A stretch of DNA of 64,000 bases from a virus. Lineage: Duplodnaviria; Caudoviricetes. The stretch's first letter is position 1. Every line of letters begins with the position of its first letter. The DNA is taken from positions 2,235 through 66,234 of the IMG/VR virus record IMGVR_UViG_3300037493_004552. The stretch is one strand, 5' to 3'. The notes beneath the pieces are model-generated. The model was not told the origin of the DNA and searched no databases. It saw nothing but the letters and a program-made list of their open reading frames with translations. Positions 1-64,000 of this stretch are shown one piece after another. A program made the position numbers and the translations under genes.

Positions 1-315
1 TTCAATGGTAAAGATTGATCTACTTCATTCATGTCTAAAGACATGTCAAAAGATGCAATCTCTTTTCTTATTGGAATAAATATTGCAAACTTTTTAAAAC
101 ATTCTACAACAAACAAAGATGAATATGTTTCTGCTTTAGATAAAGTTTTGGTAGGTATAGAAAAAATTACCGAAGAATTTATTGGACCATCTTTTGTTGA
201 AGAGAAAAAGGCTGCAACAAAAAAATTAGTAGAACAAATCAAAAAAGATGTGCTTGAAAGAGCTTGACAAAAACATAAAGTATCCAAAAAAACAATAGTT
301 AAAAAGAAAAAATAA
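1..315 (+). CDS. hypothetical protein, 5'-truncated, Lys-rich C-terminus
   Basis: Frame 1 is open from base 1 to TAA 313-315 when TGA is read as Gly. Confidence 0.6.
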
Positions 316-335
316 ATATAATAGGTGCGAATACT

Positions 336-363
336 TTGCTTACTTGTGCCTATTCTATATAAT
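336..363 (+). promoter_or_regulatory. sigma70-like promoter TTGCTT-N16-TATAAT
   Basis: Hexamers lie in the intergenic gap upstream of ATG 428. Confidence 0.5.
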
Positions 364-427
364 GTTATTTCGTTAACTAGTCTTTTTGTCTTTTATGTGT
401 ACTAGCACTTCATATTTATTTATTGTT

Positions 428-1582
428 ATGACTGGATTAATTTTGCAGGTTCTATGACTTTTATCGACCTGATTAATTTACCCTATTTATCAATGACCAA
501 TCGAAGTTATCTCTACTAATGTAGAGATCCAAGCATTATTCGTAGCACAACAAGAAGAAGAACGCAAAGTTTTACAAGACGAGCGTGAACGTAATTATCA
601 AGAAGAACAGAAACAAATAATCATTGAAGATTATTTCACATTCGCTAAGAAGATCGGTAAGATAAATTATGCAAGAGGTTGTGCAGGTGGCTATGAGATA
701 GCAACTAAAACAGCTGACTGAACTTATCACAACTGCGGAAAGAAATCTTTCGATTGCTGATGAGCAATGAAAGCGTACCTTGTAGCAAAAGGCATCACCG
801 ACTCATATGGTATCGCGTGACTTAATTCTTCAGCACTTTACGATCTAGGGATCCCTAAAGACCCGAGAGCGGCAGACCGCGGTGATTTCATGTACTGGAA
901 ATGATTCGGCGCAGCATCATCATGAAACAGTTCAACACATTTCTCTGTAGTATCAAGACCATATGACTGACATAGTATGTGGATCTTCGATAATGTCGTA
1001 CCTTGAGGAGCAGACAGATATAATGAAAGAGAAATCTTTCTATCATGTAATGAATATTCATGTACACATCTAGGTAAATATAAGATATATATATCAAGTA
1101 ATGGTGCTTACGAGATGGCTAGTACAGCTGGAACAGAAGTATTACCACGAGTAGACACAACCCCTGATGTGACAGGAGCGACATTAATGTCGATAGTTAA
1201 TCCAAATAATCCTAAAGGTTATTACATAACTATCACAGGTTATCCATATGATAGCGAAGCAAACCGTATAGCTAATCGATGGTATATAAGGAACAAAGAT
1301 AAAGATATGATATGAACATATCTTTGTGAAAACTGAGGATTTAACCCGAGTTCCGTATCACATACAAACGATTACTGACTTTGTCAGTTGTCATATAGAT
1401 ACAATAAACAACTGATTGATAACCCATTACGAGAGACATTCGATTTCCAGAAGCAAGCTTGTCTTGATAAATGGAATAATGTAGCAAACAAAAATCTACG
1501 AGTTTGTTATGCTAAACGCGCATCATATAAAACTAAAATAGTGGATATGACATGAGCGTTCCGAACAGTAGATAGTCTTTAA
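428..1582 (+). CDS. bifunctional peptidoglycan hydrolase: NlpC/P60 domain plus lysozyme/lytic-transglycosylase-like domain (384 aa)
   Basis: FDCGG...RGDF...THF (NlpC/P60 Cys/His); CENGGFNPSSVSHTNDYGLCQL (lysozyme-like Glu and GLxQ); hydrophobic N-terminus. Confidence 0.75.
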
Positions 1583-1597
1583 TATTAATATTATCGC

Positions 1598-1906
1598 ATG
1601 AAACTATCCCCAGTTTTAGTAGTAATTATTGGTTTTATCTTACCGTTCATATATGGGATAATGCTATTATTTGCTGCTATTTTTAATACTACAAAAACAA
1701 ACGGTTGTATTCATACACTCCTAGTTGGTGAGTGATGAATATCAAAAGCAGTCTGTGTAGATTTTAATTCATTTAAAATGAAAACTCATGAGAGTAATAT
1801 TAGTTCCACTTGAAGACAATTATGAAACTATTCAAGTTCGTACAACAGAGCTGGAGTCCTTCCATACTTGCGCATTCAAACACAAGTTTGCCAAGAATGA
1901 CTTTAG
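1598..1906 (+). CDS. small membrane protein
   Basis: N-terminal hydrophobic helix; 3' end overlaps the next gene. Confidence 0.4.
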
Positions 1907-2546
1907 TAATAATGATGCATTATTATTTGGATCATTAACACATGCTGTTCTTCAAGCTTACTTCTTCAAGCCAGAGGCTTGATATGATACACTCGACATC
2001 TTATGTCGTGGTTATGCTGATCGATGTAAAAACATTAGAGACTATATTGTTCTTACAGACGCCAATAGATTAAGAGAACAGTATTCACTCATCTGTTCTG
2101 AATATCAAGTTGTCGTAGAAATAGAGATGTGAACACATCTGGTCATCTTATCGGGGACGATAGATGCGATTTCGAAGGCACCAGACAACGGACCATACAC
2201 GCTTATAGATTTCAAAACATCTAAAGCAGAATGGAAACCAGAACAATTCGAAGCCAAGATGCAGAAGTTTATCTACCCACGATTATTATCAAAGCTTGTG
2301 TGAGAGGAGATGGTTAAAGGTTTCGACTATATTATCTATACCAAACATGTTACTCCTAGACTCCAGGTACTTAAGTATGAATGTAACTGGACAGAGATCG
2401 AGGAGTTAATCAAAACTATACTTACCGATTACACACATGCATTGAAAACGAATATGTGGAATCCTAAGATATGTACATCTTGTTTCTTTTGTCCTTTAAA
2501 CAAGACATGTCCGCTTAAACAACTAGGGACGTTTGATGAGTTTTAA
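1788..2546 (+). CDS. PD-(D/E)XK Cas4/RecB-like exonuclease with Fe-S cysteines
   Basis: FGSLTH, SGTIDA...LIDFKTS, one N-terminal Cys plus C-terminal CxxCxxCxxxxxC; sits near a Sak4-like ATPase. Confidence 0.85.
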
Positions 2547-2578
2547 TATGTATGTAACCATATGATAAATAATAACAT

Positions 2579-2642
2579 AAGGGGGCAGGGCTGACTCCGT
2601 TAAGGATGCCGAGGTGAACCCAGTGAAAAGCTGGGCCCCCTT
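2579..2642 (+). ncRNA. candidate tRNA-like structured RNA
   Basis: 7-bp closing stem AAGGGGG/CCCCCTT stacked on a 5-bp CCCAG/CTGGG stem with 7-nt TGAAAAG loop; GC-rich island in an AT-rich intergenic gap. Confidence 0.45.
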
Positions 2643-2712
2643 GATTTGCTAACTAAAGGTTATCACAAAATTCATATACTATCTTGTATTTTTAATCGCT
2701 TACAACATACTT

Positions 2713-2901: not shown

Positions 2902-2903
2902 TT

Positions 2904-3785
2904 ATGACTATTCAAATTAAAAAGTATTCGCCTACCGAACACAGACTCAAAGCTTTAATTTATTGAAACGCTAAAACATGAAAGACAACTTTCGCAGGGA
3001 CGGCACCAAGACCGCTGTTTATTTGTGCAGAGAATTGACTCCTTTCAATAGCCAGCAAAGCACCTGACTTTGTAGAGGTGAAAACGCTCCAGGAATTGAA
3101 GGACTTATACAGATGGTTAAGAGACACCAAACCAGATTACGATACAATCGTGATTGACTCACTATCTGAAATATCAAAGATTATAAAGGACAACCTTACC
3201 AATCAAGGGTCAAAGCAAATGATATTGAGAGACTGGTGAATCTTCAGCGAGGAAATGATGCAAGCTGTAAGACAAATTGTCAATCTTCCATATCATGTAA
3301 TTTGTATAGTGCATACCAAAGAAGTATTAGATGAAGCAGGCGCTATAGCCTTCTATGAATTATCTATTGAGACTAAAGCAAAAAACGAAGTGACTAGATA
3401 TTTTGATGTTATTGGATTCTCATCTATAAATAAAGAAGGCGAATATAATATATCAATCAAAGGCTCATCAAAGACTCTCTGTGGTGATAGGAGCAATACT
3501 ATCGACAAGGAGAATACGCCTCTCGATGTACAAGAATGGATTACATCAATCGCAAAATTATCTACAACAACACAAACAGTAGTTAAAGAAATTGAATCTG
3601 AAATTGTTAATGAAGAGTTTGTTCCTTTAGATACTCTTGCTGTTCAATATGACAAGATTAATATTTCATTGGATAAGGATAATTCGCCTGCTAATAAAAA
3701 TATTTTGAAAGTAAATATAAGTAAAGCAAAAAATCTAGATGACGCCCAGAAGGCTAATCTTATAGCATATATTGAATCTAAATAA
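2904..3785 (+). CDS. AAA_24/Sak4-like ATPase (single-strand annealing/recombination)
   Basis: Walker A IYGNAKTGKT with both Gly encoded by TGA; Walker B TIVIDSL. Confidence 0.85.
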
Positions 3786-3808
3786 TTTTAAGTACTTATC
3801 TTCCCCCG

Positions 3809-5143: not shown

Positions 5144-5152
5144 TACAATCAC

Positions 5153-5473: not shown

Positions 5474-5474
5474 T

Positions 5475-6702: not shown

Positions 6703-9402
6703 ATGATATCAACACAAGACTTCTTAAGAAGATTTGGAAGCCCTCTTGTGATATCTCTTACTGATATTAAAGGTGTCAATAGTTTTGAGGGGTGGCATAA
6801 ACATCATAATACAGCTGTATTATCAAAAATTAATAAAGATGAGACCACTCCCTATTGATTATTCTTTACTCCCAATGGGAACTACTGATCTATTCAACAG
6901 GAATGACAAAAGATAAGTAGGTCTAAAGAGACTCCTGGGCCCGCACCATATTATAATGCGCTTATAGTAGATATAGATATAAAAGATATCAAAAATAAAT
7001 ATCCCACTATGGAAGAACTCAGACTTCATATTGATGAAGTACTTAGTAAAATTACTATTCATCCAACCGCTATTGTAGAATCATGATGAGGTTTCCATCT
7101 CTATCGAATGCTTAAAGAAGAGGATAGACAAGCGATTCATGATATATATGGTAATAAAATATTTGCTATCTCAAGATTTATGGCTACATTATTTGATTGA
7201 TGAGATACAAATTCTAGTGTAGTAAGATGAGATATCAATGGCGTAATAAGACTTCCATGATCTAACCATTGGAAAACAGGGAAACCTATCCCTGTTAAAA
7301 TTGTATGGTATAGTGAAGAAAATTTCATTGATCTACAATGTATCGAAGATAGTCTTAAACAAATAGGCGAAGTAACTAAGACTATATCTGTTGCTAAAGA
7401 CGCAGCTATATCAGTTGGAACAACGAAGTATTACGAAACTAGCCAAGTAAAAATTGCAGAAATAATATATAAATTATGAGCTTATCCTAGACTATATAAA
7501 GGTGAGGAACAAACATTCAGACTTGAATGAACTCATATATGTATAGTAGATAAAGATTGAAATGTTGATAGAACTGATTCATATAGGACTTGGCCTGCAA
7601 AAAATTGTGTACATTGCTTTTTGAAAGACAAATACACAATTGAAGAAAGACCTAGATGAGAACCTCGATCATTTGCATATCATTATTTTCATAAGAATAG
7701 CCAACAAACTAGAGCATTCTTTACGAAAGAGTTTAATATTGAATTCGAAAAATACAAAAAAGACGAAGTAGAAACTGTTATTCAAACCTTTGCTGGCAGA
7801 GATTATTTTGTAGAGCTTACTGACAGAAGAGTCATTATGCATAAGCAAATTAAATCTTGAAAAAAAATGATTGATACAAATACCGATATATTTAGAAAAC
7901 CTATCAAGATCATAGGTAAGTCCTGGACCAAATTTCATGCCAATGGTACGGAATGTGAGGACGAACAAATGGTCTATGTGATGGAACTCGAGATTGATGG
8001 TAAAATAGTTAACAAGTTACTCTACCGTCTTCCGAGTAAAAAAAGATTCAATGAAAAATATGCGTGATCTATATTTTATTATGGAGAAGATAATGACTTA
8101 TGAATGTGGTATGAAGCTATGGATATCAGCGATTTACCAACAGTTCAAGTAACTGTACTTAGTGGTCTTTATAAAAATAGTGACTGAAGTTGAACAGTAA
8201 TACTATGAGGAAAGGTTATTTATTGAAATCCAGGATTAAGATACTTTACTCCAGCATTCGAATTAAAAACTAAAATATCTGAAGAGATTTCATTGAAAGA
8301 ATTCTATAGAAAATTCAACGAAATCTATGATGCTGAAGTTGCTGTTCCATTATTCCTTCAATTCATTGCATTATGTGGAATGAATATTTGGGAGGGGACG
8401 ACGGTCTATCCAGGTATGCTAGTATCTTGAAAGACTTGATGTTGAAAATCATCTATTGCAGAGATACTAAAAAATATGGCTGGATATACAGCTTCTGACA
8501 GGAAAGTCGCCCTTCCGCAAATCACACCACAACCTTTGAAGATTATGTTTACTGACAATTCTATATTATTCCCTGATGAACTAACATTAAATGTTGGTGA
8601 AAAGGCTGAAGAATCATGTAGAAATGGAATCAACAGAGATAAAGGTGCAAGAGGTATAGGTTGAGATAACGCATACTATAACTTCAGAGCACCATTATTC
8701 TTTACATGAGAAAGAACATTTAAAGATGAATCGTTAAACAATAGACTTGCTGTTATTATTCTTTCTGAAAAATATTGGAAGAAAGATGGTAAAGATAAAG
8801 TAATTGATATTAAAAATTATTCCTGTATCAAAAATATATATGATTGATACTTTGGATATAAAAGAAATATCAATGAATTACAAGCAGAGAAGGTATCAAT
8901 GCTTGTAAAGGCAGGAATCAAGCCAAGAAACGCCGATGTCCGAGCTTATATCTTTACAGTTAATGAAGTCTTTCAATTCTGATTCGAAGAAGATGAACTC
9001 ATAAAGATAGTTAAAACACATTTACAAAAAATGTGATTCGGAGGAGACGACGATATCACTGATGAATGAGAATTACAAATGTATCTTTCAAAAATATTAT
9101 TTGCTAGACAAGCACAATGTGTTAAAGAACAATATAAAAACAAATCATTATATAGATTTATGTTTATGGACGACACAGCTTATGAAAAAGCTAGGTGATC
9201 ACTAACAACATTAGTTAATAGTATTAATGCTTACTGAGAAAGAATTCATGTTTCAAAAAACTGAATTACAATAGTAGTTAAAGAACTTAATAGTATTGTT
9301 GTAGATCAAGTACTTGAAAAAATAATGGAATTTGTTTTATCATGTAACAGCAAAGTGATACAATATGTTAACAGAGACTCTGAAGAATGACCTTATAACT
9401 AA
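6703..9402 (+). CDS. AEP (RepB'-type) primase fused to a P-loop helicase domain (899 aa)
   Basis: VDID, VESGGGFHLYW (W=CGA), IRLPGSNHWK; Walker A SGKTGCGKS. Confidence 0.85.
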
Positions 9403-11450: not shown

Positions 11451-11506
11451 TAACTGGTTTTTTGCAAGCCATTATTAATATAGATTAATAAATAAAGCAT
11501 ACATAA

Positions 11507-11644
11507 TTATTCAGCCGCTACTTCTTCAGTTGCAACTTCTTCAGCTACTACTGTTTCTTCAGCAACAACTTCTTCAGCTACTACAGCTGTTTCTTCTACT
11601 GCTACTTCTTCAGTAACAGCTTCAGTAAGGATTTCTTCTGTCAT
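11507..11644 (-). CDS. very acidic Glu/Val/Ala low-complexity peptide (45 aa)
   Basis: MTEEILTEAVTEEVAVEETAVVAEEVVAEE... Confidence 0.6.
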   Translation of the reverse strand: MTEEILTEAVTEEVAVEETAVVAEEVVAEETVVAEEVATEEVAAE

Positions 11645-11678
11645 GACAAAAAGATGATGAAATAAAACTATTAATATA

Positions 11679-13022
11679 CTAAGGTAGAGACTTTCTAATT
11701 GCATCTATTTGATCTTGTAGACTACCTAATATGATTGCTTGTGCAGCTATCTGTCAATTAAGTGTATCTATAATAGGACAATTAGCAACGTCAGTACAAT
11801 TAGCTACATCTGGTCTAGGTAATTGTTGTGAGTTATTAATATTACCATCTGATCCATGGATATTAACTCGTACTCATGTTAAATCCCAATCAGCAATTCC
11901 AACTCCACCCGCACCTGTAACAGATAATGTATGTTCATTTACATTTCATAAATCAACAGTGAAATTAATTAATCCATCTGATCATAATATAGATAGAAGA
12001 TTACCAACTAAACCTAATGTATGTTCATTTACATTAGTTAAATCAGCTTGGTCATTTAATAATCCATCTGATCCATAAATATCTAATAAATTTCCTGATA
12101 ATCATAATGTATGTTCATTAATATTAGTAAGATTTACTGTAGCATTTGCTATACCATCAGAACCTAAAATAGATAATAGATTAGGATTTACTAAATCAAG
12201 TATTAATGTATGTTCATTTACATTAGTTAAATCAACTTGGTCATTTGATATTCAATCACAACCATATATATTAAGTAAGTTACCAACTAATCATAATGTA
12301 TGTTCATTTACATTAGTTAAATCAACTGCTTGTGGAGCAGCATTTAACTGACTAATACTTAAAATATTTCCACTCAAATCAAGGACTTGGTTATCAGTAT
12401 TAATAGATGTTAAATCTACGGCATTAGTTCCAGAAAGAGAAAGGATATTTGTTGCGGTATCAAACGATACTGTTTGAGCACAACATTGATTATTTTCTCG
12501 GTAAGCTAAATGATTAACATCGTCCCAAGTTAATACCTGCATGTGTTGTCTATTAGCAGGAAGTCCAACTGTTAAAGTATTTGCTGGAGTGATGAAAAAT
12601 CTCATTCCATCAATACCTAAAATATTAATAGTATCTCAATTTCCTACATCCATCATTACTCCACCTGCGTCTGCAAAAGTATAGACTATGTTAGAAAAAA
12701 TTGAACATAGATCTATTGTTGTAGTACCAACAGTAAGATCACAACCATTAATTCCTCAAAGAGAAACTGCTATATTAGCGTTTAATCGTGCAGTACTTAC
12801 TTCAATATTATGTCCAGCAATAACAATCGAACCATTACCCGATGTTAAAAGTGTTCATATGAAGTCAGGATTGTTTGTAAAACAAGCGAGTACATCATTA
12901 CATGTAGTGCCTGCTGGTATCTGAACTAATGACCAATTACAACCATCAAAAAACGGAACCACGTTTATTGGTGCTGGATTTGGACAATTTGGAATCAGAT
13001 CAAATAAAGAAGTTATTGGCAT
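11679..13022 (-). CDS. Cys-rich tail fibre-like protein with VDLTNVNEHTL repeats (447 aa)
   Basis: Shared N-terminal LxDLIxNCP...FDGCxW motif; tandem ~30-aa repeats. Confidence 0.7.
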
Positions 13023-13083: not shown

Positions 13084-16000
13084 CTAAACAGGAATATAAT
13101 CTATTTCATCTGATTGTTTATTATTTACTCGGTGAACAGCGAGCGTAGCTCAATCAGCCTTTCATACTGTTCATGATCAATCAGAATTGAATCGTGATGA
13201 TGGTCAGTATATAGTAACCACTCAATCATCTCTTCGATATTCTCCAAATGCACCGTCTCCGTTTCCACCTGGATATATTAAATTCCATCCATAATTTTCT
13301 GCTCCATTAGTTCACATTCCATTTGGTGTAAAATAATGTGGAGAAACATTTGGAAGATTAGCTGGTATCCATGGTAAAGCATTATTAGGTACATTCCATC
13401 ATCATTTTGTAGCAGAGAAATTCCATGTTATTCAAGCCGATCAAAGTTGAGTATGTATTAGATTAGAATATGGTCAAGAATCTGAATATAAATCTTCTAC
13501 ATGATATGTATTACCATACCAAGGCATTTTATCTGGAGTATATGGAGGCCACATACCTTTTGCATTTAATTCATAGAGCACATCACAAACATCTTGATCT
13601 CCACCTGGAGTAGTAGTTGTAAAACGTTCTTGTTTTGGTCGTAGTACTCTAGGATCTATTTTTACCGCAGGGAATAATATATCTCCAGCTTGTAATAATA
13701 CTATCTTAGTTCCTCATAAATTATATTCATTTGTTCTAGGTATAAGCGGATCACTTAATGATGAACTACCACCATTACCTCATCAGAATTTACTATCAAC
13801 AATTAAATCTAATTTATTTAATCCAATATTATATCTTAAACAAGCATATCTAAACGCATGTACATTATGATCAATTTGGAATACTCATTGTAATGATATA
13901 TGATAGTATCCAGTTTTAACAATAGTAATTGTTCTACATCAATATCATCAATCATTTTGACAGAATTGACTCATAGAACTTGGACGAGGAACTCAGTTAT
14001 CTAAGTTATTATCAGAAGGAGTTTGAGAATAATATGTTCAAAAGTCTTGACTGAATGTTGGTGATGAATAAAGCGCAGGTATAAATTGTTCTGTAAAATT
14101 TATTTTACATGTTCATAAAATTCATGCATCAGGTTGTATTTCATTAAGATGTTGGAATGGTAAAGATGGATCAAGGTCTACAGTTGATATCATACTATTA
14201 CCTATAGCATGCCATCATCTTGATTCATCAAAATTTGGTATAAACCATCTAGCATTTCTTGTAGAAGCATATCATCTCATTACTCCATCTTCTGGATCTA
14301 CATTAGTATATAGATGATCTTTAGACCACATTACACAATTTTTACTTAATGATATTCTTGCTCGATATTTTTGTCTACTTGTTCGTTCAGATAATTCATT
14401 TATAGTTTTTTGAATTGTTATCATCATAGTAGCAACAAACAATCTCATATTACAAGATGATCTTGGTTCAGAAAAAAAGTTTGTCCAAGCAGCTTGTGTG
14501 TGTGGACTAGCATCAGGACCAAGTGTTGCGGGAACTCCATAATCTGCAACTCGGTCTACTAACATATTACAAATACAGTCCTCTACATCATTACAATCAA
14601 ATTTATAAAAACTAAAATCTATACATTGATTTAAGCATGTCATACATGAACCATATGTTAATGCTGATTTTTTTACACACAATGTATAACCATCTATTGT
14701 AAGAATTTCTTCTGCAACTGATAATAAATCTTCAGTATGATTATCATCTCAATCACATCATCGTATTTCTAAAAATGAATGACGAACTCCTCGTAAATCT
14801 ATTGGATTTATTGGATCATTAAATAAATGGATTGTATGTTCGTTAATATTTTTAAGATCAGCAATACTATTAATATGATTATCACTTCATAATAATTTTA
14901 AATGATTTCCTTGTATATCAAATGTATGTTCATTTGTATGTATTAAATCAACTGAACTATTTAATGAATGTATATCACTTCATCGAAGAGATAAAATATT
15001 TCATAATACAGTAATAGTTTCTTCATTAACATTTGTTAAATCAACAACACTATTAATTACTTTATCGCTTCATAATATATATAATAAATTATTTTGAAGA
15101 TCTAAAGTATGTTCATTGACATTTATTAAATCTACACAACTATCAGGGTCGGGTATTTGAATTCCTAAGGTTCCCCCGTGTCGACGAGTCAAGCAAAGTA
15201 TTTGTCCATTAGGACAATCATCAAATAGCGATAGCTTTTGATTGTCAGTATTAATATTTATTATTGGTTCTGGTGTAGGTGGTATAACTATTGAAGATGA
15301 ACCATGTCATCCTCAAGTACAACTACATGTACCACAATGTGTGGAACAATTATCTCTAGAACCAGCTGATAATGTGATATTTTTACCATCATATATGACT
15401 GTTTGGAGGCAACATTGAGGTGGCATCCATTGTGCTTGGTTAGTATTACAGTCCCAAGTAAGCACTAATCGTTTATTATTAGGCATATAATCAGTAGGTT
15501 GACATGTATTTGCATCTGCTCAGTCATGCAATGCTATATATTGTCCTACTCCTGGCTCTTGTGTTCCATCTCCGTTTACTAATGCAATAGTATTAGTAGG
15601 ATTAGCAAGGTTCCAAGCAATGATTATATCATTTACCGAATCACCTGCACCAAATGTTAGTGTTATGTTCCCTGCCGATCATGCATTATCTGCTACAATC
15701 GTTATGGCAGTGGTAATACCTGCAAAGTATCAGGAATAATACGCTAGTAATGGTCCTGGTGTACATCGTCCTGGAGTAAAATATTGATTTACAGGGGTCG
15801 GCAGCCCGATTTCGATGTTTCATCCACTTACATTGAAATGTGTTCCATCTATTCATAGATAAACAAGATTACCACGATTCAATATCTGATAATTATTTCT
15901 TCAATCAGTAATATAATAACTAGTATCTAACCATATTAATAGATCATAGATAAAATTTTGACCTATAGTTAATACTGTACCTACTAATGTAGAGGTAATC

Positions 16001-16224
16001 TGTTGTATTGTTCCATTCATAACAGATAGATCATTAGTTGGACTAATAGTAATACTATGTGAGTCAAGACTTAGATCTTCACCTATCATACATTCAAGAA
16101 CTTCTTGTGTTGTTTGATTTATTGTAGAATACTCTCGACAAGTTCCATTATAATATGGAACAGCTCAAGCTTCAGGCTTACATGCTACGAGTTCATCTAT
16201 GGTTGGTGTTACGGCTGTGATCAT
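13084..16224 (-). CDS. long Cys-rich tail fibre/spike protein (1046 aa), possible C1q/BclA-like C-terminal domain
   Basis: ORF-track fragments join in one frame; NEHTL repeats; TITIVKTGYYHISLQG. Confidence 0.7.
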
Positions 16225-39121: not shown

Positions 39122-41224
39122 TTACTCTGCTGCTGCTTTCATTACTTCAGCGATGTTCATAGGCGGAGCTACTTCTCATGGAGCAGTAGCAGCACCTACT
39201 TCGCTAGTTCATCATGTTGGCCCAGACTCTTCTGGTTGTTTAGGTATATATGGATATACTCATCCTCATTGTTGATATCCTCATCACTGTGGTGAGTTCT
39301 GGAATTGTCATTGGCCTCATCCCATCTGTGGTTCTTGAGGTAATAATTTCTTAGCTTCAGTTGTATAAAGCATCAACTGAACTTCCATATCGATAGCTTT
39401 CTGTTTAGCATCTTGTACCATCTTATAGTATTCATCTTCTCATAATACCATGTTAGGATCTTGCCCAAAGAGATTCAATCAGTTCTTAAGAAGATCACTG
39501 TTTTTAACTTGTCGTCTTTGTGTAACTGGGTCTTGACCTAGAGTCTTAACAGCATTCACTATCTCTGTGAATTGCGATCTCTCGACAATCTTGTTGATAT
39601 CTTTGATAGATTCAAATTCAAATTCGTAAATGTATCTACCCTCTAAGTCTTTTTGTTTGATAGTCTTTCGTTCACTTACCGAACCATCATCACCAAACAC
39701 TGGGACTTCAAATTCTTCTGGCATATATTCTTTCATGTATTCAATCCAATCTTCAGCAGTATCTGTAAGCATCTCATTCATAGAACCAATGAGTGGCTTA
39801 AGAGCATCACTCAATCATTCATATCTCAGATTCGAGTCTGTCGCCGACCTCGCTACTCCTTGGAGTTGATTGTAGTTCGACGGGCTCACAGTGAAGTTCG
39901 CCATGTCTAAGATATTTGTCATTGATGTAATTACACCAGGATCTACTGAAGGCATTTCGAGTGTCTCAATCTTTCATGGTCATCTAATTTGTTTGAATGT
40001 AAATGGTTCGTAATTCAAAATCTTTTCACTTCATTCAATGAACTGTCCTGGTTGTAGTAAGAACATAGGACCAGCTTTGAACTTGATCAAATCAAATGAC
40101 AAATTATATAATGCATCATATAGTTTTTGCTGACCTGCTAACATAGTTCAAACTCAGTCAGCTACTCGTACTCATGGCGATCTAGTGTATCCACATTTTT
40201 TAAATGGATGTACTTTATGTGTTACATCTTTTAATGGATTAACTCCATCATAAACTATATATCCATTAAGGAATAATACTAAGTTGTCTTCTGTCCATCG
40301 TTCACAATATTCTGAATGATTATTATCTAGAGTAAGTTGGAATAGATTATCAACTTGGAAATTCAAAGTATTAAGTGCATAATCTTCATAGTATTTAATA
40401 AGTCTAATCTTATCATAGTTCTTAAGTGAGAATGGTTTAGGATTTTTAACAATAAATTCTAAATGTTCTTTACTAAGCGATCAACTTAATGCAGCAATTT
40501 TTTTGATGATAGCATTTATAGGTAATACTTTTCTATAAATCATATCCCTTTGATCTTCATACGGAACAAAAGGCTCACCAAACAAATTAAATTCAGAAAC
40601 CCAATCAAAGATAGCATAATGATTTTGGATTCATCGAATATTTTTTATAGTTGGATCTTTAATTTCTTTCACCTTTTCTTCACTTGGCATGAATCAACAC
40701 CTAGCAAACCCTGGTCAAATATTGATAGCTGTTGTTCACATATCAACCAAAGACTTTCTAGCCTTTGATGAAGAGAAACAGTATTCAATAGCTGCTTGAA
40801 CCGTATCAGCTTTCTTTTTATTCTGTTTTGCAACAGGATAAACTTTAATAGCAAAGTTTGCACCAAACATTGCTGACACCAATCTATCAACATAAGTTCT
40901 AATGATAGGTTGTTTCTCATTTGTAAGAAAATGTAATCACTTTGCTTTCAATTCAAGTGCCCTATCTATCGTACACAACGTATAATCTTTTATTTCCTGT
41001 ACTCGTTTTGGAAAAAAGGTTTGTTCATAGATAGAAACCCTCTTGATAATATCAGCTCTGAATTTATTTTCAAGAGTAACTTGTCAAGTTTTATTAGTCT
41101 TAACTCAGTTCGTAGCATAGAAATCGAACTCAGTTGGGATCTGATGTTGTTGAAACATATCCATCTTCTCAGACACAGTAGGTGTCTGTTCAGATAGAAT
41201 GTGTGTTGCGGTTTGATCTACCAT
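39122..41224 (-). CDS. portal protein (700 aa)
   Basis: Size, position upstream of scaffold/capsid, P22/T7-like features, Gln/Pro/Gly tail. Confidence 0.8.
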
Positions 41225-48209: not shown

Positions 48210-50507
48210 TTAGTAAATAAACTTCTGGAAATATTTAACATTATCTACTGCGGTCTTCTCGTTTGTAATTTTATCCTGTTTTTCTTTCTTTCGTTTTCTT
48301 AAATCCTCTTTAGTTACCGTTTGTGCTGGTGCATCGCTCAATGATGCCTTTGGAACTAGTGTATATTTGAGTCCAAGAGTCTCATAATAGTAATACAATG
48401 CTACAAGTAAAGCGTTTACATGGTCATCATTCGCTCATACTCACGAATATGTAGTCTTTCCTGTGGCATCATCATAGATTTCATAGAATGCATCCATCTC
48501 TTTCTGTAATTGTGTCATACTATTTGACATTAATATCTTATCATGATCGAATAATATCTTTGCGATATTGATTAAGTGTGATTTTGGTACTCTCATCTCG
48601 TTCCATACATTACCTTTTGTTATATTGATTCCAGCATGATAAGCAATACGAAGATTAACTACAATTCATTTTAATTCCATGACTTCTGCAGTTGCTTTCT
48701 GTGTTCAATCCATAACAAAGTAGATATCACCAGGGTTATTTATGTACTGTTCAGCAGATTTCTTATGTACTTTTATCTGATCTGCCTGTACTCAGTAGTT
48801 AGTTTGGTCAACTTTATTCAAATGGGCTTCTTCCATTATAGCGATCTTATTCAAATGTTCATTATATCCCGTCGTAATCAATGGTGATTTGTCTTGAGAT
48901 AGTGCAGGATCATATCATTGTACTATGTATTTATAATTATTAACCAACAATGTCGTCGGATCTCTCAGAGTTGGTTCATATTTAAATATCTTTCCTTCAT
49001 CTGGGAACCTAGAATACAGTTCCGCTAGGTATTTCGCTGGGTCAGCACTATATTGTTTCTTGATTGCAATCTTTTCTATATCAGGAAGGAACTCATTATC
49101 ATCAATTGTGTAGCGGAGTCATGCATAATGTGTCATTGGTGTCATGGTTGATCGATTATCTTTAATAATTTGATCGATATCCTGCATAACCATCGACTGT
49201 TTCTCGTATTCAGTCAGCATTTCATAGAACCGTCACTTCTTTATATGCTTATACATCGTGGATGCAGCAACAAGCGTCGCTCCCTCATGGGTAATCATCG
49301 GTTCGATTCCATCATACACATCTCTTGCGATAAGGTGAGCCTCATCGATGAAAATATCGTCAGCAAAGAACCCGATTCATGGATTACGTCACTCCTGTGA
49401 GATGAACGTGATGGTTCCGAGTACCCTCTTTCATTCCTTGAAGGAAAGGATTCAATACTTCGAATCGTATCTGAACATCTGCTCTCCCGCTTCACCGAAT
49501 GCTTGTGTCATCTTGGTGATGTAATGTAATACTGGCATCAGGGCTTTCTCCGTTAGTCCTATGTACAGGACGGACGTTGGTCTGAATTGCGCTTTCGGAT
49601 TGTGTTTCATAACAGCACGGAGAGCTAGGAAGACCATCAGGAGCGTCTTACCTTGCCTACGGGGGCAGGCAAATAGGGTTCTCTTTCCCATTCTTTTGAT
49701 CACGTCGTACTGTCGTCGTTGGAGGAGCGGCCTCAATTTCTTTTCTGGGTCGATGTCACGTCATTTGGCGTTGGCAGCGTCAGAGAAGATGGCGTATCTC
49801 AGTCAGGCAGTATAGTTGTCTTCAATATGGACATCAAGAACTGGGTTAGAAATAGTAAAGTCGTAGTTTTTCTTGATCGGGAAATCCATATTCTCTTTGG
49901 ATAAGTTGGATTTGATCGACAGTTTGTAATCGATCTCCATCTTATACCCGTCTAAATACTCTTTCATGAGGATCAGTGCTGTCTGTTCGATCGCTTCTTC
50001 TTCCGTGATATTCTGTCTCGCTTTCGCGATATCAGTTGTAGTTTTATTTAACGAGAAAAATATAGGCACATTATTGATCAGTGTGATATTATGTGTCTTA
50101 ATCAGTGATTGTCGTACACCGAGAACGTTATCGGATAGCATCTTTCGCTTCGCTTTCTGAACGATGTAGTCATAGAAAGCTGCTGTTATGTTGGTGTCGG
50201 GGATATCTTGATTTGGGAATAGCTCTTCTGGACGGTCGGCGTGTGGTGTCCATAACGGCAGTTTGTGTATGATCTTCTTACCATACACCTCGATCGTCGT
50301 GTCTTGCCACGCGATATTACTGTTCTCTTTCGTGAGTTGGTTGACCTGGTCCCATCGTGTAACCGCCTGTAACGACGAGAATGTCTGGTCCGAGTCTTTG
50401 ATTCTGCCTTCGTATACTAACCCGTATTTCAGCGCACGAGAAACCCGTCCGTATTCTACGGGTTTCTGGTTGGGATATATTGTTTGGGTTATAACACTAT
50501 CGGTCAT
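48210..50507 (-). CDS. terL: terminase large subunit (765 aa) with a ~250-aa N-terminal extension
   Basis: WQ motif, PRRQGKT, IFIDEA, GYDPA, NDDHVNA. Confidence 0.9.
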
Positions 50508-52243: not shown

Positions 52244-52786
52244 TTAGTCTGTAGCATATTCTCGTTTAAATCAACCAGCGGTGTTGAAGTTCGGTTTCTT
52301 TCTGAGGCAATTAGATATCTGTGGGGCAGCAATTCATAATTCCCTTACAACATCTGATGTACTAGATCGTATCTTCATAACCTCACTAGTATGTTTGTTT
52401 ATCTGTTTTATGGGTATTGATTGTGGATGTTTAGCTCAGAATTTTCATTTGAATTGCAATCAGAATCATTTTCATAGCACCTCTCTACCATGGATTAGAT
52501 TGTCTCTGTGGTCTATCCACTCTAAATTATCTATACAATTATCTGTCTTATCTCCATTCTTATGATTAATTTCTAATTTATTATCGGGATTGGGGATAAA
52601 TGCATAAGCTACTAATCTATGGACCCTACACTTCTTTTTTTTTCAGTGACCATTACTTAAGCCGACCTTGAGATATCATTTCTCGTTTGGTTGAGGTTTA
52701 AGTAGATTAAGTCATCTAACTTTTCATGTGTTACTTACTTCGTATTTCCCCTCAAAACCATAGATGTCCTTTCGGATTTCTTCCAT
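52244..52786 (-). CDS. free-standing NUMOD4-HNH-NUMOD1 homing endonuclease
   Basis: MEEIWKDIYGFEGKYEVSNTGKVR; VHRLVA...INHKNGDKTDN..NLEW; TAGGFKWEY. Confidence 0.92.
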
Positions 52787-52849: not shown

Positions 52850-54550
<1,701 letters not shown>

Positions 54551-54554
54551 CATT

Positions 54555-55388
54555 ATGAAAAACTCTACACCTACTACCCAGCCAATGAGCAATGAACTCA
54601 TTAGCAATCCATCCTTAGCTACATTGCTAAGACAACAACTATCTCAGGAAGATTTGATAGACCTTGGTCTTATAAGGAATCCAATCTACGATAACCACGA
54701 AGTGGTTAAACAAATCAAAGATGAGTTGTCTCACTATCAAGACGACCAATCAGAACGAGGAATTGAATACGCTGGCTCTCTCTCTGCTCAAGAGGAAGTG
54801 TCCAACGATGAACTCGCCAGGGCCCTTGATCCATCAGACCTGCTCACCCTAAGGGAGCAAGACACACCAGCTTTAAAGCGTAACAACTTCTGGTATGTGG
54901 ACAAGAAACGCAACGACAAGGATTGATACACACGCTATCTCTTAGCCAACGGTAACGAGCGCATCGTCACCGACGACGAGATGCAATCCAATCCGTGGTT
55001 CGCTTACCAGAGAAACCTATCCGATGCACGGGAGGACGGAGATATGGATGAGTACAATCAACTCAAACAAGAGTGGAAACAATCTCACGATTCTCTTCAT
55101 CTTAATGAGTCCAATGCGGACACATCAGAGCAATGCTTCCTTAAGATGTGAACAAAACTTTATTGAGATGCAATTACTTTACCAAGTAATCTATTGAAGT
55201 TAATAAAAGAACATAGACATCTTAATAAAAAGAATTGAATGTCAATGTCTACGGCACGACGACCTAAGGAACAATACAAACTTATATCTTATTTGGATAT
55301 GTTTCAGTCACCTATAAAACAACTACTAAAACTACAAACAAAAATCAAACTTGTAAACATAAACAATAAAACAATTGCTATCTTATAG
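54555..55388 (+). CDS. first early gene, hypothetical (277 aa)
   Basis: Open to TAG 55386-55388. Confidence 0.65.
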
Positions 55389-57805: not shown

Positions 57806-57816
57806 TAACTATCATC

Positions 57817-58176: not shown

Positions 58177-58267
58177 TAGTATTATATAGAATGGACTGTA
58201 TGAGACAGTCCATTCAGTTATCATGCTAGCACGTGATAAATATTTTATTTTATTATTTATTATTCCC

Positions 58268-58801
58268 ATGGAAACAAATCTAATGAAAGTCTCTATTGCA
58301 AAACTCTGAACTTCAATACAAGAAGTTGAGATAGCAGTATGAGCGACAGCAATGGACGCTCTAAGAAAAGCAGGATTCAATCTTGATTGAATAGTTTCAA
58401 TTAAAAGAAACTGAACAGTCATCGCTCTTGATGCAGCTTTAACAGCAGAAGATGTCTTGCTTGTATCAATAACTAAGGTGAAAGGTTGACTCGATGAGCC
58501 AACTGCAACCGAAACTCCAGTCAATGTATTGAAGTTATCTTTCCACATCGTGAAAGAAAATCAACCAGAAGTTAATGGACAAGTAGCATTCACAGACGAC
58601 ATGTCTACGTTCGACATCATCAAACAAGTCATGAATTCTAAAGGAGTTTCATTAAACGACTTCAAAGAAATCAAAGATGCAGAAGGTAACGCAGTTACAT
58701 TCTCAGACAAACTTGTTGACGGTGGTTCATACAAAATCGTTATCTCTGATACTCCAGCAGGATCAGAAGACGAAGACGATTATGAAGAAGACGATTCTTA
58801 A
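58268..58801 (+). CDS. ubiquitin-like precursor: 74-aa beta-grasp ending KVKGG, linker, second beta-grasp-like domain, acidic tail
   Basis: MKVSIAKLG..QEVEI..GATAMDALRKAG...IKRNG...DVLLV..KVKGG (ThiS/Ub pattern). Confidence 0.8.
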
Positions 58802-58864
58802 TAAGCTTTTCTCTAGGTTTTACTTCCCCGAAAATCTAGCGTGTGGTTGTACATGCAACTCGAT

Positions 58865-58897
58865 AACCCTGGTACGATAAGCCAGGGGTTTTCTTTT
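58865..58897 (+). terminator. hairpin terminator/attenuator between the Ubl and E2 genes
   Basis: AACCCTGG...CCAGGGGTT followed by a T-rich run. Confidence 0.6.
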
Positions 58898-58916
58898 ACT
58901 TTAATTTTAATAGTAG

Positions 58917-60419
58917 ATGTTCATACATGAAGACTTCAAAGAAGATCTCAAAACATTAAGGGCTGACTTACAAACTAAGTTCGCTTTCCCAGCGGACGGA
59001 GTCGACAGTCTACCTAATGAGAAGATCATCGAAAAACTTAGAGAGATATTCTCAGGTGAACGTAACCTACATAATCACAGGTTAGTCTCTGATACCTGAC
59101 AAGATTATTATATTAATTTAATTCTAGATAATGTTGTATCAATAGATGATTCATTCATTCGACTAAAGGATTGACTGTTCAGACGAACTGGTCTAACGGA
59201 TTTAATTAATACAATAGAACAGGAATCAACTGAAGCTGAACTCTTCAAACCTAATAAGGTATGCCGCGTTTGTTCATCAGACAAACTCAGAACATTAAGT
59301 CTCACAACAATGAGAGATTATATCTGAAGGCATTACAAAGTAATTACCTATCATAAAGACGAGCTCCCTGAGTGAGTATTAGATAGTATGATTCATATCT
59401 ATACATCCAGACAACGCAGACTTGTATACGTACAAGATGCATACGAAAACTGGTATTCAATACCACAATGTACATTAGTTCCTACATCAATCAAAGACCT
59501 TGTCGCTCATGAAAGAAAGATCATGCTAGAGAAAATCATTTATGATTTACAAGACAATGCTAAATTCAAACTCGAAGAGTTGTCTAATGAATACTCTGAG
59601 AAACTCAGAGAGTTTATGGAGGCAAGCAAAAAGCTTGAACAGAATATGACATCAGACTACACACAAGAAGCGGAACGCATCTTGGAGATCCAACTCAATG
59701 TTAAATCTATTCTTGAAAAGAATGAACAGATAACTGATGTTAAATATATTATGGGTAAAGAACTCATAATCGAAACTGTTCCTCTATTCTGTGGTGATAC
59801 TAAGCTACCAATAGGTAGATATAGAATCACAATACCATTGAAGGAATGGAACCCTAAAGCAATTAATATGGATATAGGTAAAGATAATGGTTACCAACAT
59901 CCACATATACAATCCAACTGATCATGTTGTCTTGGTGAATACATATCACCTATGAGAACATCATTCAGCAAACAAGATTATATTACTCTTGCTGGATTCT
60001 TTATCGAGTTTCTCGAATCGTTAAACGAAAATAGTGTATATCAATCAATGGAGAACTGGCAACAAAATAATTACAAGAGATTCATTCCTTATCTTGATAA
60101 GCAACCTAAGGTAGCGAAGCAAGTTAATGGTGAAGCACCAAGCATCATCATCATAGATGATCCAGAAACCACATCTGAATCAGAACCTGAACCTGAATTA
60201 CGCGTATCATATAACTGACCATTGGATGAAGCAATTGCTGTTGCTAATGAAGAAACAGCATCATTACAATCTGCTCTTGCTCAAAAAGAATTGCAAGAAA
60301 GAATTGCACAAGCAGACTCAGATCGCATCGATAGAGAGCAAGACGAACAGATGCAAGCTGAAGAGCATCCAGAAAACGACGATGCTTATACTGAAGCAAA
60401 TACACCAGCAACATTTTAA
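58917..60419 (+). CDS. E2 (UBC-fold)-like conjugating protein with N-terminal domain, coiled coil and acidic tail (500 aa)
   Basis: IGRYRITI...YQHPHIQSNGSCCLGEY matches HPx(I/V)xxxGxxCL. Confidence 0.7.
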
Positions 60420-60434
60420 TTCTTTTATATACTC

Positions 60435-61430
60435 ATGGCTAGACCTAAATTAAAAGTTGCTGTACTTATCTCAGGATATGTAGCTCAACTTATTGACAGA
60501 CTCCACGAGGAGTATCCTAATACAGAGCGAAGCGGGATTGCTAGGATAGAGAAACGTGAAGGTCATTACTTAGTAACTGACATTCGTTTCCCTAATCAAT
60601 CAAACACCTGAGGGAACACCGAGATCAAGGACGGTTGATTAGAATCTTTGCTAGAAGATATCTTCACCAACAATCCTGAACAACTCCACGAACGAAAGGT
60701 TCGAGTTCACTCTCATCATTCAATGTGAGTCTTCCGATCAGGTACAGATGCTTCAGCAAAAGCATCATTCAATGATGGTAACATGGATTACCGATGGTCA
60801 ATTGTTACAGCTTACAAAGCTAACTCCATCACATATAAGTGTGCATTGAACGTATTCAAACCAGCCAATATAGAATTCGATGTACCAATCAAAGCAGAAG
60901 AATTCAATCTTGAAGAATACTTATCGCTTACTATGCCTGACTATCTCACATATAAAAAGGCATACGATAATCTCACCGCTCAGAAAGACGCGGCGATGGA
61001 AGAATATAATCAGCCTTATGTGCCAACAGAAGCTGATGTAATTACACTTATAAATATCTTCAACGTCGAAGACAACGAAGACAACCGCGCATCTTGTCTT
61101 GAGATTCTTGAAAAGAATTCCAAAGGACAAAAGAAAGCGTGAGCACATCGTATCATTGAGACATACAATGATGAATGTGAAGAATTATTAGACTTCTTTG
61201 GTTGAGATATATTCGCAGACAAACTCATAGAGTTGGCTGATTCAATAGAAGCTACTAGAATATATCCAGTATATAACCCACATCAAAAAACATCGTTTGG
61301 TACTGATGGTTATCCTGATCCATTGCCTGGACAAAGATGATTGTTCGATCCAGAACAATCTAAACCAGACAGACCAGGATCAAACTCAGCAATTTTAAAT
61401 CATTACTGATATCCCGATGACCGAGACTAA
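60435..61430 (+). CDS. JAB/MPN+ metallo-isopeptidase (331 aa)
   Basis: TEWSG glutamate; WVHSHHSMGVFWSGTD is an exact HxHx7Sx2D. Confidence 0.9.
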
Positions 61431-62076
61431 TAAGGAAAGATATCATAACCAGCTAGATATAATCAATCCGCTCTTCGAGCAGACTAAGGTCGTTGTGATA
61501 GGAGCGGGTTGAATTGGTTCCACTACTATCATGTGCCTAGCACAGATGTGAATCAAAGACATCACAGTAATAGACTTCGACACAGTCGAAGATCATAACC
61601 TCGCGTCTCAATTATATAAGGAGACTGATGTTAATAAAGTTAAAGTGCTTGCACTCCAAGAGAATGTATTAGCATTCACTGGGATAACTATTCAAACCAT
61701 CAGTTCAAAGTTCAGACCAGAGATGGTCAAAGACGCAGACATCGTTATCATTGGTGTAGACAACATGGCTACACGCAAGGAAGTGGTCGAGTCACTCACC
61801 ACTAAGACCAAGAGATTCATCGATGGTCGCATGCAATGAGAAGCATTCGAATTACATATGTTCATACCAGTATTCGAGACACCATTGTATATGAATACGC
61901 GGTACCCAGACAGCGAAGCTTCCCCAGAAACTTGCACCAACAAAGCCGTATCATATAATACATTTGCTATTGCTTCTGTCATATCTAGAGTCGTAGTCGG
62001 CATCATCAAAGATGATCCAGCTATCATGAAGAAGACAAACATTCAAGTTGATTTACATAACTTAATCATTTCATAA
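61417..62076 (+). CDS. E1-like ThiF/MoeB adenylyltransferase (219 aa)
   Basis: RYHNQ, IGAGGIGS, DFDTVEDHNLASQ, GVDN..TR, IDGRM, PETC. Confidence 0.92.
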
Positions 62077-62399
62077 TGCGAGTACTCAGAGACTGGGGTA
62101 ATTGATATGATGTCTATGTTCACATCAAACTATTCGATTCGCTTGATGATGCCATCAAAAAATGGAAGATAATGCTCAAGCGTGATCTCATTGCTATATT
62201 TTACAATGACGAGAATAGAAATACTGAACTCGGTATTGAAAATTTATTAAAAGAAATCACATTAGAACATGGTTGAAAACTAGTAGTAGAGGATTGTTAT
62301 TCCATCTACTATGATCCAGACAAAATGAATTATTCATATTACGATTACAATGATGACTATGAATCTCATATGGATATCCTTGATTTACCTATAACTTAA
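62076..62399 (+). CDS. hypothetical protein (107 aa), translationally coupled to E1
   Basis: TAATG overlap. Confidence 0.6.
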
Positions 62400-62404
62400 A
62401 CCTC

Positions 62405-62791
62405 ATGCATTCACTTTACTTTGTTATGTTCGAAAAAGAAAGAGCTGTTTCAGCTGGCGTAGCAGGCTGAGTTGCTGGTAATATTTTAGATGATGAATGA
62501 TTTTGTAATACATGATTTTTCTGATCAGGCAGATCAGATCGATATGAGATCGGCGGACGCCGAAAAGGATTGTTTGAACAGTTGTTTAATCCTGATCTTA
62601 ATCTTACAAATATATCTTCTATCGCTACATCAGCGATACTCATCACTGATGAACTACGTCTTAAATTTTGTATAGAAGAGCGAAGCGATGTTCAAATTTT
62701 TGATGCTGATAATTATGACGAAATCTGTGTTAAAGATTTAAGATCACAACATAACAATAAGCGACTTGTTATTGTAGATTATCATTGTTAA
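62405..62791 (+). CDS. conserved phage protein with a DWYxIGGRW motif
   Basis: SDWYEIGGRWKG (both W=CGA, R=CGC); ends IVDYHC. Confidence 0.75.
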
Positions 62792-62812
62792 TTTTATATT
62801 GTAATTATTATT

Positions 62813-63280
62813 ATGAAACTTTATAAATGTAAAGTTATCAACAACGAAATATTAGACGAGCTTGTGCGAGCAGAAGATCTCAAGACATTGAAATCTAATT
62901 TGCTATTAGCTAAGAGATGACTAGTTGGTTACAACGAGATCTTATTTCCTGATTGATTTGATAATTATTATGAGCTAGAAAAGCGATGTAATATCAATCA
63001 ATTATTATTGATCACTATTTGCGAATGATTTCATATAAGAGACTTAGGAACTACATTAGCATGATATGCATATATCATTCCACCACATCTTAAATGAAAA
63101 CTCTGACCAGAGACATATAAAAAGGAATGAGCATATATGCTTGATTTCGATATGATTAGTTGAATATCATGAAGGTATCAAGCATTAATCGTAGCGGAAA
63201 AGAAAGCGGCAGTCGAAGAAAAACAACGCATTGTTTCGTTAGCTGCAGCCAATTCAAAAAAGAAAAAGAAAACTAATTAA
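62813..63280 (+). CDS. hypothetical protein (155 aa)
   Basis: Open frame in the recoded table. Confidence 0.6.
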
Positions 63281-63289
63281 TCCACCACA

Positions 63290-63628
63290 CCTACAGCAAT
63301 GTAGGAGATTATAGGAAAGTAGTTTTATTATTTAATTTATTATATTATGGATGATTCTAAAAGAGCATTAACATTTTGAGAAAAAGCAGTTTGATTAACT
63401 TTCAATCCTAGTGGAGATGCTGGAGTACAAAAAATTAAAGAATTGTATGCACAAATTATTGACCTTATGGATGAATTAAGAAACTCATCAGCCGCCGAAG
63501 CACACACAGAACATAAGAGACTTGCTAGTATAGCAATTACAGAAGCACAAACAGCTCAAATGTGGGCAGTAAAGGCTATCACTTGGAGAGATTAGTAACC
63601 ATTCTCCTACAGCAATGTAGGAGATTAT
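63290..63628 (+). repeat. 23-bp direct repeats CCTACAGCAATGTAGGAGATTAT at 63290 and 63606 flanking one gene
   Basis: Exact copies; each contains a CCTAC/GTAGG hairpin. Confidence 0.85.
63347..63595 (+). CDS. Acb2/Tad1-like anti-defence nucleotide-sponge protein (82 aa)
   Basis: FNPSG...IKELYAQIID...KRLASIAITEAQTAQMWAVKAITW helical hairpin. Confidence 0.7.
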
Positions 63629-63709
63629 GGAAGTTCGTACCACGATACGGCGTGGAGTATACGCAGTGTGGAAATAGCTCACCGAGTTAGTGAAAGCCTA
63701 ACAACTTCC
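63629..63709 (+). ncRNA. candidate tRNA-like structured RNA
   Basis: 7-bp GGAAGTT/AACTTCC stem stacked on a 5-bp GTTAG/CTAAC stem with 7-nt TGAAAGC loop; extra CCACG/CGTGG arm. Confidence 0.45.
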
Positions 63710-63747
63710 CGATTATATATTACACCTTTTAATTTCTAACCCACCTG

Positions 63748-64000
63748 ATGACAGCACAAGCAACAATAGATGAGATGGTAGAAAAAATATGATATATCAA
63801 ACGATATTCTGACACCAGATATTTTGACTGGGAAGATGTAAAAAAAGAGCTAAAAGCCATCATCACGAAGCATCTGAAAGCAATCTCGCAAGTAGAGGAA
63901 GATAAATATAAGATAGCAAAAGATATATTGGAAGAATTCAAACAAGCAGAAATAGACTATAAACCATATACGATAACATATAACGATTGGCTTGATAGCA
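63748..64000 (+). CDS. hypothetical protein, 3'-truncated
   Basis: Open to the window end. Confidence 0.55.

Follow-up and report, generated by a model that had tools for sequence, protein, structure and literature searches.

The window analyzed here is a stretch of 64,000 nucleotides (nt), bases 2235–66234 of the 66,234-bp virus record IMGVR_UViG_3300037493_004552 (Duplodnaviria; Caudoviricetes), with a guanine–cytosine (GC) content of 0.30–0.39. The first and last 109 bases of the record are identical and, because of this 109-bp direct terminal repeat, the genome is taken to be complete or terminally redundant. Judged from its predicted proteins, this is a tailed phage, with its genes arranged in three blocks. 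The left block (+ strand) carries a PD-(D/E)XK nuclease, an AAA_24 ATPase, a ResIII/helicase and a primase-like protein; a long block on the − strand carries fibre-like paralogues, a CAP-domain protein, a VanY-like peptidase, a portal, a 2,292-amino-acid (aa) protein, a large terminase and an HNH/NUMOD4 endonuclease; the right block (+ strand) includes a JAB-like protein and a ThiF/E1 protein (coordinates in Table 1). The question addressed is the genetic code in which these genes are written. An earlier note on this DNA, based on its letters only, had proposed two reassignments, TGA to Gly and CGA/CGG to Trp, and a host among the Absconditabacteria. The analysis strongly favours a complete tailed-phage genome whose code is the one predicted for Absconditabacteria: TGA stands for Gly, and CGA and very probably CGG for Trp.

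Open reading frames and the meaning of TGA

The number and length of open reading frames (ORFs) depend on the status of TGA, to a degree well past anything that chance would produce. Only 8 ORFs reach 150 aa under translation table 11, as against 58 under table 25 (the earlier note had proposed a comparison of coding density by table), and ORFs of at least 100 aa sum to 21,870 nt under table 11 and to 93,678 nt when TGA is sense. The length gained by taking TAG or TAA as sense is far below that gained with TGA. Codon counts are based on 71 chosen ORFs (19,947 codons), which end in TAA (53) or TAG (18); these two are the only stops. TGA is present in 60 of the 71 and, per 1000 codons, amounts to 32.3, to be compared with 7.6 for TGG, 7.4 for CGA, 1.05 for CGG, 20.8 for AGA, 3.8 for CGT, 1.75 for CGC and 3.0 for AGG. 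Under the double reassignment, TGA represents 0.45, 0.47 and 0.42 of the Gly codons over the three genome blocks, while CGA and CGG together (CGR, with R for purine) represent 0.38, 0.52 and 0.67 of the Trp codons.

To learn what TGA means, each protein was scored against Pfam twice, once with Gly and once with Trp at its TGA codons. Over 10 non-overlapping domains the Gly reading scores ∼91.5 bits above the Trp reading in total; it is favoured in 8 of the 10, with one tie and one domain at −0.3 bits. Scores with TGA as Gly and as Trp are, respectively, 113.6 and 87.3 bits for AAA_24, 46.5 and 24.4 bits for CAP, and 34.2 and 20.4 bits for NUMOD4, and P22_portal falls from 32.3 bits (CGR as Arg) to 24.6 bits when TGA is Trp. 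Within the phage itself, alignments of fibre paralogues pair TGA with GGT 14 times and with GGA 10 times (symmetric counts). Comparison with related phage DNA, restricted to unambiguous codons, gives log-odds over 14 sites of +7.0 bits for G and −33.5 bits for W, and three TGA sites of the JAB-like protein (filtered homologues, see below) give +6.8 for G and −2.5 for W. Finally, the Asn-Ser-Gly tandem repeat of gene 25540–27360 writes its Ser-Gly pair as TCA-TGA (7 times), TCA-GGT (2), AGT-GGT, AGT-TGA, TCT-GGT and AGC-GGA (once each). These comparisons indicate that TGA encodes glycine.

The examples from which the earlier note had argued were found in the sequence as it described them. Both Gly of the Walker A motif GNAKTGKT in the gene starting at 2904 are TGA, the SGGGFH of the primase begins TCA TGA TGA GGT (two TGA), one Gly of GAGGIG in the ThiF/E1 gene 61417–62076 is TGA, and TCA-TGA does alternate with AGT-GGT in the repeat just described. 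TGA falls in Gly and not in Trp columns, the opposite of the outcome that the earlier note had named as refuting. For the CGR codons, HLY-CGA follows in the primase, EI-CGA-KDI and GGFK-CGA-EY occur in one and the same NUMOD4 protein, E-CGA-SG and F-CGA-SGTD in the JAB-like protein, D-CGA-YEIGG-CGC-CGA in a small gene of the right block, and Y-CGG-V in the CAP-domain protein.

CGA, CGG and the other arginine codons

Among the genes examined, the JAB-like gene gave the clearest Trp columns. A search of 1.84 billion representative proteins returned 211 relatives at E ≤0.001, the best 150 of which were used. At the five CGA sites of the conserved domain, these 150 relatives, taken unfiltered, carry W in 53/129, 76/132, 103/143 and 110/143 sequences and, at the fifth site, F in 38/130. 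The column test was repeated on the 66 matches with a W content ≤2.5%. In this filtered set, W occupies site 87 in 32/53, site 90 in 52/60 and site 101 in 46/59 homologues, site 32 is divided between I (15) and W (14), and site 120 between F (18) and M (11). Summed over the five sites, W reaches +18.8 bits and R −3.5, that is W over R by 22 bits. In the controls of this test, 22 of 25 codons give their standard meaning.

The large terminase allowed a comparison at the codon level. In 15 full-length database relatives, the nine positions that are CGR in the window switch between R and W from one close relative to the next; more distant proteins have W, F or Y there. Searching metagenome contigs with the terminase alignment yielded 30 loci, all with greater ORF coverage when TGA is sense, and codons were then compared by tblastn over 30–31 related recoded loci. 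Opposite CGA of the window (189 pairs), the partners include TGG (34), CGG (16), CGA (15) and codons for Leu (15), Tyr (11) and Phe (11). True Arg/Lys codons stand opposite CGA/CGG of the window in 13/233 pairs, versus 217/398 opposite AGA. At site 265, the invariant Trp of a conserved W-Q-Y-D motif, 27 related loci write TGG 13 times, CGG 11 times and CGA 3 times. Log-odds for CGA from unambiguous codons of the related phages (9 sites) are +15.4 for W and −12.9 for R, a difference of 28 bits, and the corresponding controls are correct for 50 of 54 codons.

Other proteins add to this picture. In the alignment of the HNH protein with I-HmuI (PDB 1u3e), W stands opposite CGA codon 5 and Y opposite CGA codon 140. 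Passing from Arg to Trp at CGR raises the Pfam scores of NUMOD4 by 6.6 bits (from 34.2 to 40.8), PDDEXK_1 by 3.9 and the portal by 3.4 (to 35.7); four domains change by ≤0.2 bits, and the net change over all is +11.8 bits. PDB alignments for the CAP and VanY proteins end before the CGR sites or leave these sites unresolved, and a PDB search with the JAB-like protein gave chance-level matches only. Columns of the fibre gene 13084–16224 were compared in 19 homologues called with table 4. Its 14 CGA columns contain R 88 and W 70 times, followed by L/Y/I/F; its TGG columns contain W 92, R 72 and Y 27 times; its AGA columns contain R 114, K 31, E 18 and Q 16 times. The CGA columns thus behave as TGG columns, unlike AGA columns, and the R found there comes from CGA codons of the homologues, which the gene caller translated as Arg. 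Taken as homology evidence, these comparisons show CGA to be a codon for tryptophan.

CGG is rare (21 codons, some within doubtful ORFs) and its assignment has a much thinner basis than that of CGA. Its two aligned sites give 44 pairs, with TGG (16), Tyr (8), Arg (8) and Phe (6) among the partners; one of these sites, terminase position 21, is Tyr/Phe in relatives. The 11 relatives that write the invariant terminase Trp as CGG support the same meaning in the phage family, and CGG very probably encodes tryptophan as well. The proposal of CGA/CGG as Trp therefore stands for CGA, which lies in Trp or aromatic and not in Arg columns, and holds less firmly for CGG, for which it draws on the two aligned sites and on the usage of relatives. 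The other arginine codons are unchanged: R is the best-scoring residue for AGA (+24.2), CGT (+22.2), AGG (+9.9) and CGC (+3.9, one site), in agreement with all four remaining Arg.

Decoding, host and alternative explanations

The phage brings none of the decoding machinery that such a code demands. ARAGORN predicts no tRNA, either within the window or over the full 66,234 bp of the record (bases 1–2234 were scanned for tRNAs only), Rfam gives no match at gathering thresholds, and no release-factor domain (RF-1, PCRF) occurs in the 50 ORFs scanned, in line with the earlier note. Because of these three negative results, the economical reading is that the phage matches the code of its host. Furthermore, since the reassigned codons occur in all three blocks, a standard-code cell could not express the replication genes. 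Translation would then be carried out by a host without UGA termination, which would supply a Gly-type tRNA(UCA) and a Trp-type tRNA(UCG/CCG). The phage would thus depend on a host in which these codons already have the same meanings, presumably an Absconditabacteria-type lineage, and translation in vivo would be unambiguous.

Such cells seem to exist. In two bacterial genomes, TGA-recoded loci, which may be prophage fibres or cell-surface proteins, have 30–40% amino-acid identity with the fibre gene 25540–27360 over 145–332 aligned residues. Both genomes contain a tRNA(UCA) with G1:C72, C2:G71, G3:C70 and U73 (Gly-type) and a tRNA(UCG) with G73 and U20, and one also contains a tRNA(CCG) with A1:U72 and G73. 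By the features used for Trp identity in the relevant passages of PMC8629427 (G73 and no A20 in tRNA(UCG/CCG)), the tRNA(UCG) of both genomes is of predicted Trp type. Crude codon usage in the two genomes, per 1000, is ∼5.3 for CGA, ∼1 for CGG and 4.5–6.8 for TGG (7.4, 1.05 and 7.6 in the phage). These genomes indicate that the required type of host exists near the gene pool of the phage and are not proof of the host itself.

A direct link to a host was also looked for. One relative (40% terminase identity) is a TGA-recoded 68-kb contig in a genome bin titled ‘Candidatus Gracilibacteria’. The other loci of that bin have a standard-code ORF coverage of ∼0.8–1.0 and its tRNA(UCG), with A20 and A73, is of Arg type; this route to the host was rejected on these grounds, and the presence of the phage contig there is probably a binning error. 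No prophage link to a bacterial genome was found in species-representative genomes, where this one relative in its doubtful bin was the only case. The host proposed by the earlier note is inferred from the match of codes, and the CRISPR comparison that it had suggested gave no spacer-like match (window positions 1–40000 versus 401 genomes of the class of that bin).

Some DNA matches were discarded as host links. Those at 11503–11627 and 60–320 to the 401 genomes correspond to low-complexity acidic or lysine-rich coding sequence, and a 31-nt exact match lies inside a gene and not in a repeat array. The two short ORFs concerned, 11507–11704 (− strand, acidic E/V/A/T repeats) and 31–315 (+ strand, Lys/Glu-rich), match bacterial DNA weakly and many times, which is a matter of composition and reflects neither homology nor spacers.

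Several observations weigh against the double reassignment in an Absconditabacteria-type host. The codon meanings are read from homology columns, and most relatives are themselves recoded phages whose database proteins were called with table 4. The unfiltered column test on the 150 JAB matches misread GGT (and TGA) as Trp, because 49 of these best 150 (W >3%, G <5%) appear to be recoded proteins to which table 4 had been applied. The two aligned CGG sites give log-odds of 4.9 for Y, 3.5 for W and 0.2 for R. On the host side, the identity of the tRNAs is predicted from rules, the sole relative in a genome bin sits among standard-looking contigs with an Arg-type-looking tRNA(UCG), and spacers, as said, gave no match. 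Other adverse points would fit table 25 alone, with TGA as Gly and CGA/CGG as ordinary Arg at variable positions: VanY and CAP score better with Arg at CGR, by 1.4 and 0.7 bits (CAP has the Y-CGG-V site), terminase site 426 (CGG) is true Arg in 8 of 28 relatives versus TGG in 16, and several CGA sites lie in unconserved columns, e.g. terminase sites 264 and 452. This explanation is nevertheless very improbable in view of the advantage of W over R at both the JAB and the related-phage CGA sites (22 and 28 bits), the scarcity of Arg/Lys opposite CGA/CGG as compared with AGA, the invariant terminase Trp written TGG, CGG or CGA, and the W of I-HmuI opposite CGA. A table 4-like code, in which TGA would be Trp, has practically nothing to recommend it: public proteins of the relatives do carry W where the window has TGA/Gly, which reflects only how these proteins were called, and such a code scores far worse over the Pfam domains and the related phages, disagrees with the pairing of TGA with GGN in paralogues and relatives, and yields a composition of 3.97% Trp and 3.77% Gly (7.0% Gly, 1.59% Trp and 2.94% Arg under the double code).

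If CGR and TGA have the meanings given above, the remaining alternatives concern the way in which this code is realized. The phage could impose a code of its own on a standard-code host, as stop-recoded gut phages may do by means of suppressor tRNAs, or C-to-U RNA editing could turn CGG into UGG. Phages with a code unlike that of their host are indeed known (in sections of PMC10746230); however, the phage shows no tRNA, Rfam RNA or release-factor domain with which to do so and its replication genes are as recoded as its virion genes, so that no infection could begin in a cell with the standard code. Editing of CGA would create UGA, a Gly codon under this code; as the CGA columns hold W and no G, C-to-U editing cannot explain the data. 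Taken together, these two mechanisms deserve very little credence. More weight, while still unlikely, is given to the code as stated in a host from another lineage of the same class, e.g. a Gracilibacteria group sharing both reassignments. It is in keeping with a predicted CGG = Trp in some Gracilibacteria (passages of PMC8629427) and with the title of the bin holding the only binned relative. It is opposed by CGA = Trp being reported, in those same passages, for Absconditabacteria only, and by the standard-looking code of the Gracilibacteria-titled bin outside the phage contig, probably a case of faulty binning. An Absconditabacteria-type host remains the preferred interpretation.

The code itself has precedents. 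UGA = Gly together with CGA/CGG = Trp was predicted for Absconditabacteria (SR1) by Shulgina & Eddy (2021, eLife; PMC8629427, passages on this clade), as the earlier note had stated. The phage shares with that prediction the same three codons with the same meanings, a low GC content, AGA as main Arg codon and a large excess of CGA over CGG. It differs in being a phage and not a bacterium, and in using CGA as frequently as TGG (7.4 versus 7.6 per 1000), a comparison with bacteria that is rough since the counts were made differently. Phages and prophages that use code 25 in Absconditabacteria and Gracilibacteria were described by Liu et al. (2023, mBio; PMC10746230, in the parts devoted to them) and resemble the present phage in their dense in-frame TGA and in a coding density much higher under table 25 than under table 11. 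The words ‘CGA’, ‘arginine’ and ‘Codetta’ do not occur in the main text of that paper, where a sense-codon change is untreated, and its hosts were linked by CRISPR spacers, unlike the phage studied here. Another parallel, outlined in PMC8629427, is that of phages of recoded Bacilli, for which AGG is predicted to mean Met as in their hosts. There the phage follows the sense-codon reassignment of the host without carrying a decoding tRNA; the codon, amino acid and host clade differ, and here two reassignments are combined. Lastly, stop-codon-recoded phages equipped with suppressor tRNAs and release factors have been described (portions of PMC10746230). Like them, the present phage has in-frame stops read as sense; unlike them, it has neither suppressor tRNA nor release factor, and its recoding is not confined to late genes.

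Both the code and the code-25 phages being already published, a specialist would expect a phage of this kind. Full-text searches found no paper on CGA/CGG = Trp in phages, supplements, which may list such contigs, being outside the search. Searches of viral and phage collections with two proteins, capsid-like and terminase, and with the alignment of the latter found no close relatives. The bacterial prediction of CGA/CGG = Trp had been based on rare codons, and a phage family under its own selection provides independent and denser comparative support. Practical consequences follow for annotation. Table 25, the best code that any pipeline offers, still mistranslates the CGR codons, as the earlier note had warned. 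In 45 of the 71 ORFs it puts Arg for Trp at a total of 168 codons, many of which are conserved tryptophans. The relatives deposited in public protein databases (TGA as Trp, CGA as Arg) carry two systematic errors, W for Gly and R for Trp. In addition, a phage in the double code grows only in cells sharing that code, so that the code itself predicts the host clade.

A capsid-like gene without reassigned codons, and further features

The ORF 36383–38065 lies after the portal and a scaffold-like gene, and 25 of its 30 nearest named language-model clusters belong to the SU10 major-capsid family (score 0.97). On this language-model lead it is probably the major capsid gene; an AlphaFold model of the protein has a mean predicted local distance difference test (pLDDT) score of 47.7, too poor for a fold search. 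Its codon usage is singular. TGA accounts for none of its 41 Gly codons (binomial P ∼1e-11), to be set against 46% of Gly codons elsewhere in the genome, CGR for none of its 8 Trp codons (P 0.002), and AGA for 25 of 25 Arg codons. Recoding in early and late genes, as claimed by the earlier note, thus holds for the three genome blocks and fails for this late gene, from which TGA, CGA and CGG are all absent. Each of its nine database relatives has only 0–3 W at Gly columns of the window and 0–2 R at Trp columns of the window, unlike the terminase and fibre relatives, which are full of such W/R positions.

The pattern is most simply read as codon selection acting strongly on the gene with the highest expression, with the reassigned codons being less favoured. 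A more tentative suggestion is that the capsid gene was purged of these codons as they are still decoded slowly or ambiguously in the host; if true, the whole phage family would be a natural reporter of unfinished codon reassignment. Another possibility is that a code-neutral capsid gene is exchangeable across code boundaries. In any event, a capsid gene devoid of reassigned codons is a test case for the translational cost of these codons. Avoidance of TGA in highly expressed host genes gave an ambiguous picture: a GTP_EFTU domain beside a tRNA cluster is free of TGA in one recoded genome and has 7 TGA codons in a second, its identity as EF-Tu being deduced from position only.

The features of the window are collected in Table 1.

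Table 1. Features of the window, with coordinates counted from its first nucleotide
Feature	Coordinates	Strand	Basis or remark
Whole window	1–64000	.	Very likely most of a complete 66,234-bp phage genome with TGA = Gly and CGA/CGG = Trp
AAA_24 ATPase gene	2904–3785	+	Pfam; Walker A GNAKTGKT
Primase/polymerase-like gene	6703–9402	+	PHROG 2478, E 3e-6
Tail-fibre-like gene	13084–16224	−	14 CGA codons
Repeat-rich fibre gene	25540–27360	−	N-S-G repeat units
CAP-domain gene	33873–34616	−	Pfam; holds Y-CGG-V
Probable major capsid gene	36383–38065	−	560 aa; language-model features (SU10-type) and position
Portal gene	39122–41224	−	P22_portal
Large terminase gene	48210–50507	−	7 CGA and 2 CGG
HNH/NUMOD4 homing-endonuclease gene	52244–52786	−	
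JAB-like gene	60435–61430	+	6 CGA codons, 5 within the conserved N-terminal domain
ThiF/E1-like gene	61417–62076	+	97.5 bits; GAGGIG
Small gene with D-CGA-YEIGG-CGC-CGA	62405–62791	+	Four CGA; no family match

Two further regions deserve mention. The ORF 54102–55388 (+ strand) sits in a GC-richer zone (48–56 kb), at the switch from − to + strand genes, and has no Rfam match. Its first third (54102–54550) resembles non-coding sequence and its Arg codons are unusual (CGG 5, CGC 5, AGG 6). In the gene run 58223–62791 (+ strand), the JAB-like and ThiF/E1 genes stand among ORFs 58223–58801, 58917–60419 and 62405–62791, which have no family match. These genes are a candidate phage-borne set for ubiquitin-like (Ubl) conjugation, the E2 and Ubl parts of which would be hypothetical.

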